A DNA stretch of 64,000 nt from an uncultured Verrucomicrobiae bacterium. Lineage in GTDB: Bacteria > Verrucomicrobiota > Verrucomicrobiia > Limisphaerales > Palsa-1400. The notes beneath the pieces are model-generated. The model saw nothing but the letters and a program-made list of their open reading frames with translations. It had not been told where the DNA came from and did no database searches. Numbering within the stretch: the stretch's first letter is position 1; each line of letters opens with the position of its first letter. Below are positions 38,759 through 52,070 of this stretch, piece after piece. The translations under genes were made by a program, and so were the position numbers. The stretch spans positions 96,001-160,000 of the forward strand of contig CAVPOM010000009.1 in the NCBI GenBank assembly GCA_963707025.1. Reading direction: 5' to 3'.

Positions 38759-39502
38759 TTAGGGTGTTTCGATCTGATCCTTCATACGGTAACTCCGGCC
38801 TTCCACGATCACCGTTTCGGCGTGGTGCAGGAGCCGGTCCAGCACGGCGCTGGTCAGGGTGCTGTCGTTGTTGAAGATTTTGGGCCAGTTTTTATAGGGC
38901 TGGTTGGTCGTGACGATGGTCGAACCGGTCTCGTAACGCTGGCTGAAGACTTGGAAGAGCAAATCGGCGCCGGTTTTATCGATCGGCAAATATCCAAGCT
39001 CGTCAATACAAATTATGCTGGGGCTCATGTATTTCTTGAGTTCGGCTTTGAGGCGGTGGGTGGATTGGGCCGCCGCCAGAGTGTTGACGATGTCGATGGC
39101 GGTGGTGAACAGCACCGTGTGGCCGGCCAGACAGCCCTCATAGGCCAGCGCGGTCGCCAAGTGGCTCTTTCCGAGGCCGGCGCCGCCCATGAAAATGACA
39201 TTGGCCTTGGCCTTGAGGAAGGAGAGGCGGAAGAGATTTTGCACTTGGGTTCGATTGATTTTCTTGGGCCAAGTCCAGTTGAACTGTTCGAGGGTTTTAA
39301 TGACCGGAAAGCGCGCCGCCTGGATGCGGCGCTGGGTCGCCCGGTCCTTCCGCCGGAGGGCTTCGCCTTCGGCCAGGCGGCTTAGAAAGTCCAGTTGCGT
39401 CCAGTTTTTCTCCGCCGCCTCTTGGGCCAGGGCTTGGTGGTGCTCCTGAAAATAGGAGAGTTTGAGGTAAAACAAATGCGTCACAAGTTGATCGTCGTTC
39501 AT
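38759..39502 (-). CDS. istB: IS21 helper ATPase IstB
   Basis: G.AGLGKSHLA, IDELGYLP, RYE.GS...TTN and LDRLLHH motifs. Confidence 0.95.
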   Translation of the reverse strand: MNDDQLVTHLFYLKLSYFQEHHQALAQEAAEKNWTQLDFLSRLAEGEALRRKDRATQRRIQAARFPVIKTLEQFNWTWPKKINRTQVQNLFRLSFLKAKANVIFMGGAGLGKSHLATALAYEGCLAGHTVLFTTAIDIVNTLAAAQSTHRLKAELKKYMSPSIICIDELGYLPIDKTGADLLFQVFSQRYETGSTIVTTNQPYKNWPKIFNNDSTLTSAVLDRLLHHAETVIVEGRSYRMKDQIETP

Positions 39503-40977
39503 GGGTTGGGTGGAGAGTCGGGTTGGTTCTTGGAGTCGTAAAGAGAGAGGTCTGGCGCGGGCAGATCCAACTCCAGCAGGTCTTGTTGCCGAGTCAGGTG
39601 CAACGCGCCGGGTTCCTCGGGCGGATGCTGGCGTTGCTGTAAAAGGTTGGCGATGTATTCGCAGGAAAAAGCCTGATAGGTGAAGGCGTCTTCCATGGCG
39701 CGAGCGACCGCTTCGACGCCATAAAGCTCGCTCAAGGCGACGATCTTCTGGACGTGATGTTTGGGATTGAGACGCCGCTGTTCCAGTTGCTGATAGTAAT
39801 CGTCGGCCTTGGGGCACAGGGCCAAAAAGCGCAGGTAGAGCTTTTGCTCGCGTGCCTTTTTACGGTGCAAGAGCAAGGGCGCCACATGGTCGGGCAACTC
39901 GTAGTCCTGGTTGCGGTCGTAACGGCGCACATGTTCGGCCACCAGCTTCTCCTGGTCATAAACCAGGAGCCGGTCGGCGAACCGTTTCAAGGTGAGCTGG
40001 CTCGACGCATACTGGCAGGGGACCGAATAACGGTTGCCATCAACGATGATGCGGAACTGACTGTTGACCCGGACGGGGCCTACGACGGCCGCCTCATAAG
40101 GCAGCGGATGGAGGGGCTTGAGGTTTTCCTGGGTGAAGAGTTCCTGGGGCGTTTTTTGGGTCTGACCGTGAACCCGGATATTGGCCACCGTGTCCAACCA
40201 ATAGCGCGCCGCCGGATTAACGGCTTGAAAATCCGAGAGTTGCAGACCGTTGAGGAAGTTCTTTTTGACATATCCCACGCCATTCTCGACGCGCCCTTTT
40301 TCCTGGGGCTGAGATGGGCCACAGGCTCTGATTTGAAAACCGTGATGGTTGGCAAAATCCAAGTAACGCGGGTTGAACGTGATCGAGGTGCCGACCCGGC
40401 TCAAGACGGCGACCTTGCAGTTATCGACCCAAACCTGGCACACCACCCCACCGAAGTATTCCAGGGCGTGCTGGTGGCAGGCCAGAAAATGCTCCATCGT
40501 TTCGGCCAGCGTGAACTCCAGATACATTTTGCGGCTGAAGGCCAGCACCATGATAAAAAAGGACAGGCGGCGCTGGGTGGATCCCACCGGGACCGAACCG
40601 GCGCATCCCCAGTCCACTTGGGCGCACTCTCCGGGTTCAAAGTGGAGCGTCAGGAAAGCCGGCCGCGGTTTGGGGCGCACCTGGCGCACGAACTCCTTGA
40701 GGATGGTGTAGCGTCCCTGGAAGCCCCGCTCCTTGAGTTGCTGGAAAATCTGCTGGGCCGAGTAAGCATGTTGTTCCAACAGGCGGACGATGTTGCCCTT
40801 GAACGGATCAAGTTTGCTGGGGCGCTGAGGGATGGCGGCGGGCTTAAAACTCTCCCGCCCGGCCCATTTGCGGACGGTGTTCAAACCCAGTTTGAGTTCG
40901 CGGGCGATCTGCCGCAGGCCCAGCTTCTTTTCGGTGAACAACTGCCGAATCTGGCAATAGGTTTGATAATCGATCAT
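39499..40977 (-). CDS. istA: IS21 transposase IstA
   Basis: N-terminal HTH; PGECAQVDWG, VDNCK, EKGRVE and DGNRYSVP motifs. Confidence 0.95.
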   Translation of the reverse strand: MIDYQTYCQIRQLFTEKKLGLRQIARELKLGLNTVRKWAGRESFKPAAIPQRPSKLDPFKGNIVRLLEQHAYSAQQIFQQLKERGFQGRYTILKEFVRQVRPKPRPAFLTLHFEPGECAQVDWGCAGSVPVGSTQRRLSFFIMVLAFSRKMYLEFTLAETMEHFLACHQHALEYFGGVVCQVWVDNCKVAVLSRVGTSITFNPRYLDFANHHGFQIRACGPSQPQEKGRVENGVGYVKKNFLNGLQLSDFQAVNPAARYWLDTVANIRVHGQTQKTPQELFTQENLKPLHPLPYEAAVVGPVRVNSQFRIIVDGNRYSVPCQYASSQLTLKRFADRLLVYDQEKLVAEHVRRYDRNQDYELPDHVAPLLLHRKKAREQKLYLRFLALCPKADDYYQQLEQRRLNPKHHVQKIVALSELYGVEAVARAMEDAFTYQAFSCEYIANLLQQRQHPPEEPGALHLTRQQDLLELDLPAPDLSLYDSKNQPDSPPNP

Positions 40978-44237: not shown

Positions 44238-45731
44238 TGAGGTGGACCCCATCCTTTAGACCACGGAGCGCATGAAATAAGCGCGACTTTTGCCGATTGC
44301 TGTCATTACTAATTGTAGTTGACTACTGTTCATTCCGTGTTTCAAAACCCTTTCGAAAAGAGAGAACGAGCGATGCGGAGCACTGCCCGTCCTCCCTCTC
44401 CGTTTTCTTAGGGTTCTCAACTCTACCGCCGCAGGCGGTCTGATTTCAAGCCTTTTCCTGCCGCCTGCCTCTCTGTCAAGTGCTGCGATCGCTCCTGCCT
44501 CTGGCAGGTTGCATCGCTTCCCATTTGGCCGGTTGGGCTCCATGCGTGCCGGGATCAAAATACGCGTCCGCCGGCGTCGCATAGCCCAACGCCTGGTGCG
44601 GTCGTTCCCGGTTGTAGCCGTCAAACCACCGGCCCAGTCCGCGCCCTGCCGCCAACCCGTCGCCATAGTCTTGCAAATAAATGTCCTCATACTTGGCGCT
44701 CCGCCACAGCCGCTCGATAAACCGGTTGTCCATCCAGCGACCCCGTCCGTCCATGCTCACGTCCACCCCCGCCGATTCCACCGCATCGATAAACATCGGG
44801 GAGGTGAACTGCGATCCCTGGTCGGTATTGGAAATCAACGGCGCCTGACGCCCCGCCCGCAACGCCGCCTCCCAAGCGTCCACACAAAAGTCCGCCTCCA
44901 ACGTGTTGCTCAAGCGCCATCCCAGCACGTAACGACTCCACCAATCCATCACCGCCACCAAATACATAAACCCAGTTGCCATAGGCACATACGTAATGTC
45001 CGAACACCAAACCTGATCCGGTCCCGTCACTGCCAAATTGCGTAACAGATACGGATAAATCTGGTGCCCCATCTCCCGCAGACTCGTCTTGGGCTTGGCG
45101 TAAATCGCCTCGATCCCCATCAACCGCAGCAGCCGCACCACCCGTTTGCGATTGATGGTCAAACCCTCCCGGCGCAACAGCACGGTCAGTTTGCGGCTGC
45201 CATAAACCGGGTGGTCCAAATGCATCTGGTCCAACCGCCGCATCAGCGCCAGGTTCTCCTCTGTCTCCGGACAGCACTGGTAATAATAACTGCCACGGCA
45301 CACCGCCAGCAGCTCGCACTGGCGCCGCACGCTGAGCTGCGGATCGGGAGCGATTAAACATGTTAAAGCCCCAGTTGCCTGGACTTTTTTTTAAGCCAGT
45401 CCAAGTCCACCGTCAGTTGGCCAATCTTCTCATGCAGTTGGGCAATCAACTGTTCCTGATCCTCCGTGCGGGGTTGCCCGGGCTCAAACAATTCGGGCAT
45501 GTGATCCCGAATCGTCGCCCGCCACTGCGTGACCTGCGCCGGATGCACCGCATACTCTCGCGCCAATTGCGCGACCGTCTTCAGCCCCACCAGGGCTTCG
45601 AATCCCACTTTGGCCTTGAAGGCCGCACTGTGTCTTTTCCGTTTTGCTTTCATAAGTCTGCTCTTTCTTATCTACAGCAAACCGGCAAAAATCGAAACTT
45701 ACCTGTGGTCTAAAAATAGGGGTCCAGCTCA
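44238..45731 (-). mobile_element. IS3-family element, copy 1 (no TSD)
   Basis: IRs TGAGGTGGACCCCATCCTTTAGACCAC / TGAGCTGGACCCCTATTTTTAGACCAC; flanks ttc and gtc differ. Confidence 0.95.
44476..45653 (-). CDS. IS3 transposase OrfA/OrfB (programmed -1 frameshift)
   Basis: OrfA 45363-45653 (HTH); OrfB with W.SDITY, TDQGSQFT, DNRFIERLWR; A8G slippery site at 45384-45392. Confidence 0.93.
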
Positions 45732-46550: not shown

Positions 46551-48043
46551 TGAGGTGGACCCCATCCTTTAGACCACGGAGCGCATGAAATAAGCGCGAC
46601 TTTTGCCGATTGCTGTCATTACTAATTGTAGTTGACTACTGTTCATTCCGTGTTTCAAAACCCTTTCGAAAGAGAGAACGAGCGATGCGGAGCACTGCCC
46701 GTCCTCCCTCTCCGTTTTCTTAGGGTTCTCAACTCTACCGCCGCAGGCGGTCTGATTTCAAGCCTTTTCCTGCCGCCTGCCTCTCTGTCAAGTGCTGCGA
46801 TCGCTCCTGCCTCTGGCAGGTTGCATCGCTTCCCATTTGGCCGGTTGGGCTCCATGCGTGCCGGGATCAAAATACGCGTCCGCCGGCGTCGCATAGCCCA
46901 ACGCCTGGTGCGGTCGTTCCCGGTTGTAGCCGTCAAACCACCGGCCCAGTCCGCGCCCTGCCGCCAACCCGTCGCCATAGTCTTGCAAATAAATGTCCTC
47001 ATACTTGGCGCTCCGCCACAGCCGCTCGATAAACCGGTTGTCCATCCAGCGACCCCGTCCGTCCATGCTCACGTCCACCCCCGCCGATTCCACCGCATCG
47101 ATAAACATCGGGGAGGTGAACTGCGATCCCTGGTCGGTATTGGAAATCAACGGCGCCTGACGCCCCGCCCGCAACGCCGCCTCCCAAGCGTCCACACAAA
47201 AGTCCGCCTCCAACGTGTTGCTCAAGCGCCATCCCAGCACGTAACGACTCCACCAATCCATCACCGCCACCAAATACATAAACCCAGTTGCCATAGGCAC
47301 ATACGTAATGTCCGAACACCAAACCTGATCCGGTCCCGTCACTGCCAAATTGCGTAACAGATACGGATAAATCTGGTGCCCCATCTCCCGCAGACTCGTC
47401 TTGGGCTTGGCGTAAATCGCCTCGATCCCCATCAACCGCAGCAGCCGCACCACCCGTTTGCGATTGATGGTCAAACCCTCCCGGCGCAACAGCACGGTCA
47501 GTTTGCGGCTGCCATAAACCGGGTGGTCCAAATGCATCTGGTCCAACCGCCGCATCAGCGCCAGGTTCTCCTCTGTCTCCGGACAGCACTGGTAATAATA
47601 ACTGCCACGGCACACCGCCAGCAGCTCGCACTGGCGCCGCACGCTGAGCTGCGGATCGGGAGCGATTAAACATGTTAAAGCCCCAGTTGCCTGGACTTTT
47701 TTTTAAGCCAGTCCAAGTCCACCGTCAGTTGGCCAATCTTCTCATGCAGTTGGGCAATCAACTGTTCCTGATCCTCCGTGCGGGGTTGCCCGGGCTCAAA
47801 CAATTCGGGCATGTGATCCCGAATCGTCGCCCGCCACTGCGTGACCTGCGCCGGATGCACCGCATACTCTCGCGCCAATTGCGCGACCGTCTTCAGCCCC
47901 ACCAGGGCTTCGAATCCCACTTTGGCCTTGAAGGCCGCACTGTGTCTTTTCCGTTTTGCTTTCATAAGTCTGCTCTTTCTTATCTACAGCAAACCGGCAA
48001 AAATCGAAACTTACCTGTGGTCTAAAAATAGGGGTCCAGCTCA
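46551..48043 (-). mobile_element. IS3-family element, copy 2, 3-bp TSD ACC
   Basis: Near-identical to copy 1 (one A shorter near 46668); ACC at 46548-46550 and 48044-48046. Confidence 0.95.
46788..47965 (-). CDS. IS3 transposase OrfA/OrfB (copy 2)
   Basis: Translations identical to copy 1. Confidence 0.93.
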
Positions 48044-48811: not shown

Positions 48812-48840
48812 TTGACATACATAGCGATGCCATGTATTGT
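48812..48840 (+). promoter_or_regulatory. Sigma70 promoter with palindromic operator; leaderless padR transcript
   Basis: TTGACA-17-TATTGT, ATG 6 nt after the -10 box; palindrome TACATaGC-gat-GCcATGTA at 48818-48836. Confidence 0.7.
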
Positions 48841-48846
48841 GGCACT

Positions 48847-49179
48847 ATGTTGAGCAAAGAACTTGTGCCGGCTTCGACCGAGCCGGTGATCTTGTCGCTC
48901 CTGTCCAGGGGTGAGAGCTACGGGTACGCCTTGATCCAGGAAGTGAAACGGCTTTCCGGGGACAAGATCGAATGGACTGATGGGATGATTTATCCTGTGC
49001 TGCACCGCATGGAAGACGAAGGCTGGATTGCGTCGCGTTGGGGCCAGGCGGAGAATGGACGCAAGCGCAAATATTATTCGCTCAAAAAGGACGGCAAAAA
49101 AGCATTGCAGAGCCAGCGCGAACAGTGGGTTACCGTTTCAGGGGTGTTCAAGCAATTATGGAAGGAACAATATGTTTAA
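48847..49179 (+). CDS. PadR-family transcriptional regulator
   Basis: ILSLL...ESYGY.LI, GMIYPVLHRME..GWI and RKRKYY motifs. Confidence 0.93.
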   Translation: MLSKELVPASTEPVILSLLSRGESYGYALIQEVKRLSGDKIEWTDGMIYPVLHRMEDEGWIASRWGQAENGRKRKYYSLKKDGKKALQSQREQWVTVSGVFKQLWKEQYV

Positions 49180-49852
49180 TCTCGACCAGGCAATTGCGGA
49201 ATGGCGCCGGCAGATGCTGTCGGCGGGCATCAAAAGCCCAGTGCCGCTGGAGGAACTGGAAATTCACTTGCGCGAGGATGTGGAGCAGGGGATGCGGTCA
49301 GGATTAGCCGCGCAAGCAGCATTTGAAACGGTCGTGCAACGGATGGGACAAGCTGACGGGCTCAAAGCGGAGTTCAAAAAGGCGGGCAAAACCAACGGAT
49401 ACAGCCGGATCAACCACAATCGCGTCTATGTGACCGCCCTCATCTCCTTCCTCATCATCTGGCAGTTCCTTAATCTGGCTCCGACGCCCGGGCTGGATAG
49501 CCGGGCGCTGGTGGCCTATTTCCAGACGGGAGGCGGAAAGAATTCGGGCGCAGGCCTAATGGGCATGCACAGGATGTTCACCGGCGGCGGTTTTGAAAGG
49601 TGCTCGGTGGGCAGCCTGGCCATACTGCCCGTGTATCTCAGACCTTGGGAGGCTGCACTTTGCCTATTCTATTCTTTGGCTGCCGGTCTGGCGCTGGGCG
49701 CACGCATCCTGCACCCATACACGGGCCGCCGGCTGACTCGCTTCTTGAACCTGGCACTTCTGCCGGCTTTTCCGATTGGGACAGCCATCGGCCTTTACGG
49801 TTTAGCCAAGGTGGATCGGCAACGGAAAGAACAGGAAACTAACCTCGCTTAA
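49172..49852 (+). CDS. Permease-prefix-domain membrane protein with an internal SecY plug-like segment
   Basis: MFNLDQAIAEWR...ELE.HLRE...AF..V.RMG....L..EF prefix; PTPGLD...LMGM..MFTGG..ERCSVGSLAILP; FPIGTAIGLYG tail. Confidence 0.8.
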   Translation: MFNLDQAIAEWRRQMLSAGIKSPVPLEELEIHLREDVEQGMRSGLAAQAAFETVVQRMGQADGLKAEFKKAGKTNGYSRINHNRVYVTALISFLIIWQFLNLAPTPGLDSRALVAYFQTGGGKNSGAGLMGMHRMFTGGGFERCSVGSLAILPVYLRPWEAALCLFYSLAAGLALGARILHPYTGRRLTRFLNLALLPAFPIGTAIGLYGLAKVDRQRKEQETNLA

Positions 49853-50118
49853 GGTTCAGAACCTGTACCCTGTACTCTACAGACCCGGCCTGTGGCCGAG
49901 GCAGCCAACAGAAACCCCCGGTGAGAGGGCCAGCCACACCTTCGAGCCGCTGATGGCCCTGGCCGCGATGGCGGGCGACGGCATGGAGGTGAGCCGAGGG
50001 CTGAACTGGAGGCCGGGCAGCACGAGCGCCGCATAGCCGTCATCATGGAAACGCCAGCGCTGGAAGGGGTTACCGATAATATTGTGCAAAGCCTGGGGTC
50101 TTTTAACACCTCCGAAGA

Positions 50119-50286
50119 TGTAACGGCATGTAACGGGGGTGTAACGGCTCTAAAATGCGTAAGTGCTTGTGGTGCAATAGGTGTAACGTTGTAACGGCTG
50201 TAACGGAGCAATGGTCCCCTTCCGCTTGACTTCACCGTCATACCCAATGTGTGTAACGATGTAACGGGTTTTTCGGAGCAATGGTC
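50119..50286. repeat. Iteron-like array, 8x TGTAACG
   Basis: Copies at 50119, 50129, 50140, 50182, 50190, 50199, 50252 and 50260; also 2x CGGAGCAATGGTC. Confidence 0.85.
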
Positions 50287-50423
50287 GGGAGCGGACCCCC
50301 TGCGCTACTTCCAGCGGTTGTCCTGGCGGAACAAATCCACTTGAAACAGCGAAGAACCGGAGTGGCGATTTCCGCAGTCGTCCCTCGGCGGGACTCTGGC
50401 GGACAGGGCAGATGGGGGATGGG

Positions 50424-50849
50424 TCATTGTTTGACGATCAAGACGCTGCAATGGGCGTGATCGCTGATCCGGTCCGCCGTGTCGCCGAGCAGCCGTCCCC
50501 AAAGTTCGGAGTGGTCGCTGTGGCCAATCACCACCAGATCGTAGTGACCCTCGTCGGCCAACTTGACGATGCTTTTGGCCGGATGTCCGCGGCGCGTCTC
50601 GCAGAGGATGGGGATGCCGTGTTGGGCCGCGGCGGCCGCCACTTCCTTTTGCCGCTCCTTGAAGTATTCATCCGCCGCCTCCGCTTCTTCCTCGTATTCG
50701 CCGGGCAGGTCGGAGTGGCGCGGGAGCGGTTCGCGCACCCAGATGGCGGTCAGCTCCGCCCCGGTTAGTTTGGCCGTGACGGCGGCCCGGTGCAGGGCCG
50801 CTTTGCCGCCTTTGGAGCCGTCGTAGCCCACCATGATTTTCTTGAACAT
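50424..50849 (-). CDS. Universal stress protein
   Basis: MFKKIMVGYDGS, GHPA..I, DLVVIG and LLGDTADRI..HAHCSVLIV motifs. Confidence 0.93.
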   Translation of the reverse strand: MFKKIMVGYDGSKGGKAALHRAAVTAKLTGAELTAIWVREPLPRHSDLPGEYEEEAEAADEYFKERQKEVAAAAAQHGIPILCETRRGHPAKSIVKLADEGHYDLVVIGHSDHSELWGRLLGDTADRISDHAHCSVLIVKQ

Positions 50850-50852
50850 AAT

Positions 50853-52070
50853 TCAGCCTTTCGTTGGAACCAGTGGAGCGCCAGCCCTGCCCTTGAGCTT
50901 GCGCTGGTAGAGCCGTCCCCACGCCTGCATGGTCCGCCGGGATGGCTCGCAGAATTTCTGGGCAATCAGCGTCGGCACAAACGCGCTCAGGATCACGACC
51001 GTGACCAGAATGGAATACTGTTTCTGATCAATGATCTTGTTTTGCAGGCCGAAGAGCGCGGAGATCGTGCCGAAGGTCAGCCCGGTGGACATGAGCAAGG
51101 TGGTGTAATTGGCCTCGCGCTTGCGCAGGAAGAACATGCGCGAAAGAGGCAACACGCCCACGAATTTGGTGATCATCTTCAGCGCCAGCAATACCACGAT
51201 CACGCCCAGCGCCGCCCAGAGCGCCGGCAGCGACACGAACGAGCCGGCGCGGATGAAGTAGAACGGCGTGAACACCGCGAAGGCGATGCTTCGCATCCGA
51301 TGCACCAGCGTTTTGTCCCGCAGGAACACCCCGGCCACAACCAGCCCGATCAGATAAGCCGGCAGCACCGCCTCGCTTTTGGCCGTGGAGGCCAGTCCGC
51401 CCAAGAAGAAGAGGACGAAGAAAATAAACTTGATTTCCGGTTCGCTCACCCGGGTCGCCCCCATGCGGACGACGATGAATTGCGTCCACCGGGGCATGAA
51501 CCAGAGCGTCAGGCCCGTGACGAGGACAAACACCAGCAGCCAGATGTTGAAGCTGGCGAAGATGAAACCCAGAGCCAGCACCGTCCCCAGGTCGTTGATG
51601 AAACAGGCCGCCAGAATCATCTTGCCCAGCGCCGTTTCGTTTTGCCGGGTCTCGATCATCACGGCATAGACCACGGCGACCGAAGTAGTGGAGAGGGCGA
51701 TCCCGGCGATTTGGGCTTGATGGAGCGGCCAGCCGAGAACCAATTGCGCAAAGGCCCACACCCCCGCGAACGGCAGCACAAAGGCCGCCGTGCCGATGGC
51801 CATGCTCGCCCGGAAATTGGCCCGCAGCGATACCGGATCAATCTCCGCCCCGGCCAGAAAGGTCAGCACCCCGCTGCCCAGCATGGCGAGAAAGTTGGTC
51901 CAGTCGGTCGAACGCAGGATTTGCTGGCCATCGCCAAAGTGGATGTTGCCGGCGGCCACCCCAACGACGATTTCAATCAGCGCCACGGAGAGGCCGACGC
52001 GAATGGAAACCAGGCTCGCCACCAAAGCCAGTCCCATCCAGATCGCCGCGATGAACCAGATATTGTCCAT
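50853..52070 (-). CDS. Cation:proton antiporter (CPA2 / Na_H_Exchanger)
   Basis: About 12 TM; FLAGAEID, ALSTTSVAVV and ILAACFINDL motifs. Confidence 0.9.
   Translation of the reverse strand: MDNIWFIAAIWMGLALVASLVSIRVGLSVALIEIVVGVAAGNIHFGDGQQILRSTDWTNFLAMLGSGVLTFLAGAEIDPVSLRANFRASMAIGTAAFVLPFAGVWAFAQLVLGWPLHQAQIAGIALSTTSVAVVYAVMIETRQNETALGKMILAACFINDLGTVLALGFIFASFNIWLLVFVLVTGLTLWFMPRWTQFIVVRMGATRVSEPEIKFIFFVLFFLGGLASTAKSEAVLPAYLIGLVVAGVFLRDKTLVHRMRSIAFAVFTPFYFIRAGSFVSLPALWAALGVIVVLLALKMITKFVGVLPLSRMFFLRKREANYTTLLMSTGLTFGTISALFGLQNKIIDQKQYSILVTVVILSAFVPTLIAQKFCEPSRRTMQAWGRLYQRKLKGRAGAPLVPTKG

Follow-up and report, generated by a model that had tools for sequence, protein, structure and literature searches.

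Analysis of the window, the whole stretch of 64,000 nucleotides under study, revealed a gene for a PadR-family repressor followed by a gene for a chimeric membrane protein (Table 1). The 3' end of padR and the start of the second gene share eight bases in a stop-start overlap. The genome of the window (G000) retains an intact single-copy secY elsewhere (G000:C6); the chimera locus is distant from this gene and lies in an insertion-sequence-rich region. Just upstream of the PadR operon, a transposase pair, which we take to be IS3-like by its appearance, is present in two copies with identical translations (44476-45653 and 46788-47965), and another transposase, presumably IS21-like, was found at 39499-40977. 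Genes of universal-stress type and cation/proton antiporter type, judged by appearance, converge on the locus at 50424-52070 on the minus strand.

Table 1. Features of the PadR/chimera locus and positions of related prefix-domain genes carrying TatC tails.
Feature	Position	Strand	Evidence or remark
Sigma-70-type promoter-like site, TTGACA, 17 nt, TATTGT	48812..48840	+	10/12 matches
Palindrome TACAT-N9-ATGTA, probable PadR operator	48818..48836	.	between the -35 and -10 boxes
PadR-family repressor, 110 aa	48847..49179	+	PF03551, 80 bits (cut-off 27); TIGR03433, 94.1 bits (cut-off 101.8)
Chimeric membrane protein, 226 aa, uninterrupted frame	49172..49852	+	
Permease-prefix (HAAS-like) cytoplasmic helical domain, aa 1-72	49172..49387	+	NF038403; predicted helices; dN/dS 0.18
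First transmembrane helix (TM1)	49424..49480	+	hydropathy; codons compared with those of 4 parents and 4 secY genes
SecY-derived graft, aa 102-153: TM1 end, periplasmic loop, plug (~49559-49588), first half of TM2	49475..49630	+	DNA, protein and profile matches
Two further hydrophobic helices (49655-49711 and 49742-49807)	49655..49807	+	common to insert-free parents
Piece of a multi-copy non-coding element	49839..50364	.	gives the chimera its last codons and stop in G000
TatC-tail prefix-domain genes	L014:1501-2091, L204, L100:1455-2117, L145:865-1272; P0143, P0165, P0217		three start points

The multi-copy element behind the chimera contains many TGTAACGG words and has more than 15 other matching places in G000 at 79-95% identity. 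Relatives of the chimera end earlier and have a different tail from that of the G000 copy. The start of the element abuts the chimera; in two other copies of the element, this end is preceded by a sequence that is absent here. This suggests a deletion, which may also have taken downstream cassettes.

The promoter scan alone was weak, with shuffled sequences averaging 0.8 sites, and most of 116 related padR upstream regions have the same promoter layout as the one at the locus. Since the padR start codon lies 6 nt after the promoter-like site, the padR mRNA is probably leaderless. A relaxed form of the palindrome occurs in 107 of the 116 padR upstream regions (duplicates included). The strict form, searched on one strand, was found at four places in G000, three of them before PadR and prefix-domain genes and one before no clear gene. 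This arrangement suggests an autoregulated leaderless operon with the cassette proteins as its main product.

The earlier note on this DNA had reported that positions 49481-49630 encode, in frame and without stops, a peptide resembling the TM1-plug-TM2 region of SecY. Exact translation agreed with the quoted peptide, and the resemblance proved to be genuine. By blastn, the segment 49480-49630 matched the host secY (G000:C6:419808-419961) with 76.9% DNA identity over 156 columns (E 2e-26), and by tblastn against the own genome, host secY was matched with 54% identity over 61 aa (E 6e-11). The local DNA alignment score against host secY was 188.5, compared to at most 73 for 1000 random genome windows. 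Alignment of a 13-member family of chimeras with host SecY by hhalign gave a probability of 99.4 (E 5.6e-21), with the match confined to SecY residues 33-91. In a PDB sequence search, SecY chains were the 10 best of 11 matches, all at residues 88-155, with a best E of 0.0012.

The chimera thus shares with SecY (TIGR00967, PF00344) a segment of the N-terminal region that is homologous at the DNA level. About 55 to 65 of the 467 SecY residues, or ~12% of the length, are present. Outside the graft, DNA alignment and hhalign revealed no SecY match in the chimera, as had been stated for the remainder of the protein. TIGR00967 gave 11 bits against a cut-off of 253.6, with weak matches at E 0.15 and 0.033. 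The proposed Pfam search for the Plug_translocon and SecY families was negative: no family was found at E up to 10 with either the whole protein or a 72-aa piece, in scans that included no host SecY as a positive control. Pfam scans of two other chimeras matched neither the SecY nor the plug family. The protein is not a SecY and, with the pore absent, cannot be a channel.

To check the junctions, four sequencing runs were compared with the window. In run X2, the left junction was bridged by a 502-base contig with 24 differences (49070-49571) and the right junction by a contig with 20 differences (49552-49833). Run X1, possibly derived from the source sample, yielded a contig with 0 differences over 49572-49722. 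The earlier note had named a chimeric assembly as the case that would overturn it; the independent contigs across both junctions and a total of 14 in-frame chimeric proteins exclude this explanation. With regard to expression, two RNA runs contained only short contigs of relatives, about 85-95% alike.

The 14 in-frame chimeras also answer the question of whether further fusions of a permease-prefix domain and a plug exist. A protein search retrieved 11 full-length relatives with 67-89% identity, all of which kept the frame. P0013 ends early, after TM2, and P0014 has a frameshift inside the graft. P0121, a strongly decayed member, was added by a library-wide profile search, which counted 3476 representatives of the family at E up to 0.001. 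Several dozen chimera alleles are represented by P0002-P0013. A SecY profile made from related genomes was run against 261 proteins and 306 cassette genes and matched P0001-P0013 (E 1e-24 to 9e-16) and P0121 (E 1e-7), plus the locus copies; a weak match in L081 (E 0.002) sits inside the prefix region and was dropped. A search of 124-396 aa proteins that used just the graft returned only the query itself, five chimeras already known and one truncated SecY (7 of 14 candidates). Four short SecY-like frames were seen in relatives. Two of these, G025:C102 and G009:C1, were rejected as fusions because they represent frame-broken secY genes. Within the family, the chimera was found in 2 of 31 genomes, G000 and G001, which belong to one genus; five genomes of other species of that genus had a completeness of 64-92%. 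Related loci are labelled Verrucomicrobiota, Pedosphaera and Limisphaerales.

The origin of the graft was studied with a DNA tree of the segment from 6 chimeras and 21 secY genes, from which one locus with a duplicate protein was omitted. Five of the six chimera DNAs formed one clade (bootstrap 86) among the secY genes of this genus. In the free tree, the sixth (L020) was placed with a secY from a different genus (bootstrap 62). Because of this placement, repeated capture was considered. A single clade for all six chimeras was not rejected (AU p 0.39). The window graft showed 78% identity and a synonymous difference of 0.24 to the secY of G003, versus 73% and 0.45 to its own secY, which argues that the graft came by inheritance or transfer and is no fresh copy. 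Repeated capture or gene conversion from the secY of each host was rejected on these two grounds, since one origin is enough. The data fit a single capture from a secY of this genus, followed by long branches of the chimeras, so that the chimeric gene with an acquired translocon plug described in the earlier note can be assigned a donor.

The nearest relatives that lack the insert (P0015-P0023, 35-47% identity) have the prefix domain, the TM1 start and the two C-terminal helices in common with the chimera. The loop between these common parts is short and variable, with a wide range of length and sequence among the parents, which indicates that the graft replaced an outer loop. TM1 has a parent-type start and a SecY TM1-type end; the left junction falls inside this helix and its position is only approximate. 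The right junction is sharp at 49630, and the contig there continues into secY-type sequence. Positively charged residues are found before TM1 and after TM2. From hydropathy and charge, we infer that the prefix domain lies inside and the loop outside, which would probably be the plug's own side of the membrane, as the SecY plug is placed on the periplasmic side in the available text of PMC8082313. At the captured TM2 start, the membrane-helix score has been lost.

Structure prediction, also proposed earlier, supported the prefix domain and left the graft poorly defined. AlphaFold2 with a 23-row alignment gave a mean pLDDT of 60 and a pTM of 0.31. N-terminal helices were predicted at residues 4-17, 23-42, 47-58 and 61-75, interrupted at the invariant G59, and the pLDDT was about 76-86 over aa 1-60. 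The graft, with predicted helices at 110-123 and 128-137, mostly had a pLDDT of <50. At the position of the GxP kink motif, this copy reads GQA and some relatives read GQP. Foldseek with the model returned 0 matches at E up to 0.001, and a wide structural search gave none at Z 8 or more. Complex prediction of a PadR dimer with two prefix domains scored 0.25, against a mark of 0.32.

The match of NF038403 to the chimera was borderline (28.1 and 30.7 bits against a cut-off of 30; residues 27-68), and all 60 aligned relatives matched this model at E up to 0.01. The Pfam HAAS family PF22564 matched 2 of the 60 relatives with a best E of 0.028. In the Atlas cluster, HAAS is assigned to 13% of members with a score of 0.89, and the DUF1048 structure 2o4t was found at rank 48 (Z 5.0, rmsd 4.9, 80 aligned residues). 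The assignment of the prefix domain to HAAS proper is therefore weakly supported.

Selection on the parts of the protein was analyzed with a codon model of six chimera DNAs and compared with the same segment of six secY genes of the genus. Beside the prefix domain, which is the most constrained part of the chimera (Table 1), the linker and TM1 had a dN/dS of 0.81, the graft one of 0.55 and the C-terminal helices one of 0.50. Counting estimates for the four parts in the same order were 0.14, 0.59, 0.49 and 0.47. The value for the graft is four times that of the equivalent secY segment (0.13) and does not fall below the value of the flanking helices. A dN/dS of 1 was rejected for the graft (LRT about 7.6, p about 0.006, from a small sample) over synonymous distances of about 0.4-1.2 and for the C-terminal helices (p about 0.002); the value for TM1 was indistinguishable from 1. 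These rates indicate that the graft is retained under moderate purifying selection, as loosely as the other membrane parts. Of the possibilities raised in the earlier note, a purely neutral fusion is thereby disfavoured; the graft may still have a generic role as a loop.

At the residue level, the plug core mostly persists, with F136, F141, G128 and L113 present in 14 of 14 chimeras. At the TM2-start positions 145, 150 and 152, the SecY-invariant residue was kept in 4, 3 and 0 of the 14 chimeras, respectively. Two SecY-invariant plug residues are changed in the window copy, which is the only one of the 14 that has no plug tyrosine, a residue invariant in SecY. In P0121 the graft is nearly erased, as reflected by its weaker SecY profile match. 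Column conservation in 21 SecYs correlated with conservation in the 14 chimeras (Spearman 0.48, p 2e-4), a correlation that can be explained by shared ancestry together with ordinary constraints on glycine and hydrophobic residues.

The related loci contained 306 prefix-domain genes, which encode 286 distinct proteins. Many of these genes form tandem arrays of 2-5 per locus with similar stop-start overlaps. Clustering of 285 complete tails yielded 43 clusters, 11 of which trace to host export, assembly or proteostasis machines: SecY (1), TatC (3), PilD (1), CcsA (1), ClpC-N (4) and, weakly, PilC/GspF-like (1). The other 32 clusters had no clear donor. One of them has an equally weak match to an AcrB-type transporter (E 3e-4), and P0099 lies near the MFS_1 cut-off; these two signals imply that the donors may not all be export machines. 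Conserved genes are also the donors that are easiest to detect. By a rough count, G000 has about 354 open frames with at least three strongly hydrophobic stretches.

The PilC/GspF-like cluster is large. It comprises L092:274-960 and 21 related genes with a weak likeness to a helix-loop-helix membrane segment (E 3e-4 to 0.04 in a search of 41,598 frames, where all three matches of this kind are to PF00482). In the PilD-tail cassettes (L115:4001-5071, L006, L114, P0043 and relatives), the N-terminal part of PilD is missing and identity to the G000 gene is about 50%. A second PadR array in G000 (G000:C12:117035-119000, minus strand) has the same operator and carries a CcsA-tail cassette split over two frames, followed by a prefix-domain/ClpC-N fusion. 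A clpC-like frame at G000:C4:836294-836917 (minus strand) stops after 207 aa, possibly through a frameshift or an assembly error. The CcsA, PilD and ClpC fusions are more diverged, with about 30-50% protein identity to the G000 genes, and may represent old domain fusions.

The TatC pieces (Table 1) start near TatC residues 196, 250 and 278. Over 275 bases, one of them had 81-83% DNA identity to two tatC genes of the genus; for a third tatC the value was 73%. When 7 fusions were placed in a tree with 32 TatCs, three of them joined the TatC of the genus on starred branches and four fell outside, so that at least two changes were forced. A single clade for all TatC fusions was not rejected (AU p 0.078). 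From this topology, TatC was probably captured at least twice by the prefix-domain family. All seven fusions keep TM5-6 with a T and a Q spaced seven residues apart. This equals the spacing of T208 and Q215, which the available text of PMC5201420 places in the TatA/TatB docking site; the comparison is one of spacing. The second genome with the chimera, G001, has both a SecY chimera and a TatC chimera.

The scaffold itself is already known. A HAAS-PadR dyad has been proposed as an alternative to two-component systems (bioRxiv 10.1101/2020.09.24.301986, also PMC11237479). As in the locus described here, a separate PadR gene directly precedes a gene for a membrane protein that begins with a small helical domain and has varied membrane tails, and the two are a proposed signalling pair. 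The fusions given in the available parts of that work are PspC, Toastrack, FtsX, FtsW/RodA, VanZ and uncharacterised multi-TM domains; internal secY grafts and host-derived TatC or PilD pieces are not among them. A search of open full-text literature found no SecY-plug or TatC graft in a PadR-coupled protein. The internal host-secY graft and the pattern of captured export-machine pieces were not found in the literature searched. In Listeria, the PadR repressor LftR is encoded in one operon with the DUF1048 (HAAS superfamily) partner LftS, and the two are functionally linked by genetics (PMC4517056). According to the sections available of this paper, repression of lieAB by LftR is independent of LftS, which calls for caution about a relay from the prefix domain to PadR.

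Another related case is mycobacterial ClpC2, described in the available text of PMC10030653 as a partial copy of ClpC1 that represses itself and acts as a sponge for cyclomarin. Both systems involve a partial homologue of an essential machine; the self-repression of ClpC2 is predicted for the chimera operon, and sister cassettes carry the ClpC N-domain. ClpC2 differs in being a soluble protein that binds to its own promoter, with a demonstrated ligand and protective effect. In the chimera, repressor and putative bait are in separate genes, and the putative bait is in the membrane. An analogy may also be drawn to the integrated decoys of plant and animal NLRs, in which a copy of a host target is built into a receptor scaffold. 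Those are unrelated proteins, and the output of the chimera would be transcription rather than immune cell death.

By analogy with ClpC2, it is tentatively proposed, at somewhat less than an even chance, that the chimera is a self-inducing sensor or sponge with a SecY-like surface as bait. The outer loop of a PadR/permease-prefix (HAAS-like) cassette has been exchanged for about 50-65 secY codons. In the proposed mechanism, PadR would bind the palindrome and repress its own leaderless promoter. A fixed output module acting on PadR would be formed by the cytoplasmic prefix domain, with the membrane part as the exchangeable input. The graft would most likely display a SecY-like surface in the periplasm, where it could be engaged by whatever normally binds the periplasmic face of SecY, be it a toxin or peptide entering the cell, a partner of the translocon or a factor of quality control. 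Engagement of the bait would relieve PadR repression, and more bait would be made to act as a sponge or status reporter, since the operon seems to hold little besides such cassettes. The logic of ClpC2 would thus be divided between a bait in the membrane and a repressor encoded by another gene. Indirect support for this reading comes from the kinds of donor and from the probable repeated capture of TatC. The TM5-6 pieces with the docking-site T/Q spacing also count in its favour, as do the maintained frame, the dN/dS below 1, the SecY-like conservation, the topology and the conserved operator. Against it stand the dN/dS of the graft, the erosion of residues, the low pLDDT, the presence in 2 of 31 genomes and the untraced tails. 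In the available text of PMC7858069, SecY is the entry route of two CDI toxins, a precedent in favour of the bait; the determinants given there, S281 in TM7 and G313, lie outside the plug, a word absent from that text, and count against it. For the decoy suggested in the earlier note, the repeated capture of other export-machine pieces is indirect support, and the relaxed evolution of the graft does not agree with strict mimicry.

A close rival, only slightly less likely, is that the graft is an exapted filler, i.e., that random in-frame recombination brought in secY DNA that fitted the topology of a hypervariable loop and now drifts towards a specificity unrelated to SecY. The protein would still be a PadR-coupled membrane sensor. 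Such an origin would account for a graft dN/dS (0.55) equal to that of the flanking helices (0.50), for the loss of SecY-invariant residues along long post-capture branches, for the captured TM2 start without a membrane-helix score and for parent loops that differ widely in length and sequence. It does not readily explain why the donors concentrate in export and assembly machines when G000 has roughly 354 hydrophobic-rich open frames, or why TatC was probably captured more than once, each time with TM5-6. An improbable explanation is that the graft is tolerated in a functionless gene on its way out, with the prefix domain alone maintained. The frameshift inside the graft of P0014, the short P0013, the TM1 dN/dS of 0.81 (not different from 1), the replacement of the 3' end by a repeat element in G000, the two changed plug residues and the patchy distribution all point in this direction. 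The intact frame of 11 full-length relatives at 67-89% identity speaks against such decay, as does the rejection of dN/dS = 1 for both the graft (over the synonymous distances given above) and the C-terminal helices. The earlier note had also considered a translocon modulator, for which no support was found. In this scenario, judged quite improbable, the TM1-plug piece would dock on SecYEG or free SecE and tune or block export under stress. The native sidedness and the TM1 end kept in the graft would suit such docking, and the TatC fusions retain the TatA/TatB docking helices in parallel. Only about 55 of 467 SecY residues are available for this role, however; these residues are eroding, and the gene lies far from secY in an insertion-sequence-rich region. 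An assembly artefact or a chance resemblance has a negligible probability: the Pfam scans without a match are outweighed by the contigs that bridge both junctions, the occurrence of the chimera in other assemblies and a second genome, and the DNA match at E 2e-26.

Whichever reading applies, the chimera is a clear, datable new gene in which part of an essential single-copy translocon was grafted into an accessory sensor, and its donor clade, the parent form that has no insert and both junctions are all available. Since parent and chimera differ mainly in one loop, they offer a direct test of the proposed HAAS-PadR signalling model. If the graft is a filler, it illustrates well how a sensor family can draw its variable loops from core genes. 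Grafts that serve as baits would point to natural agents or stress signals directed at the SecY periplasmic face and the TatC docking site. On a broader and rather unlikely view, the PadR/prefix-domain arrays might form a bacterial integrated-decoy receptor repertoire in this Verrucomicrobiota lineage. Its surfaces, with the same reservation, might have been copied repeatedly from the SecY plug loop, the TatC TM5-6 docking site, PilD, CcsA, the ClpC N-domain and perhaps PilC onto one constant signalling scaffold. If so, attack on or overload of essential machines would switch on its own sponge.
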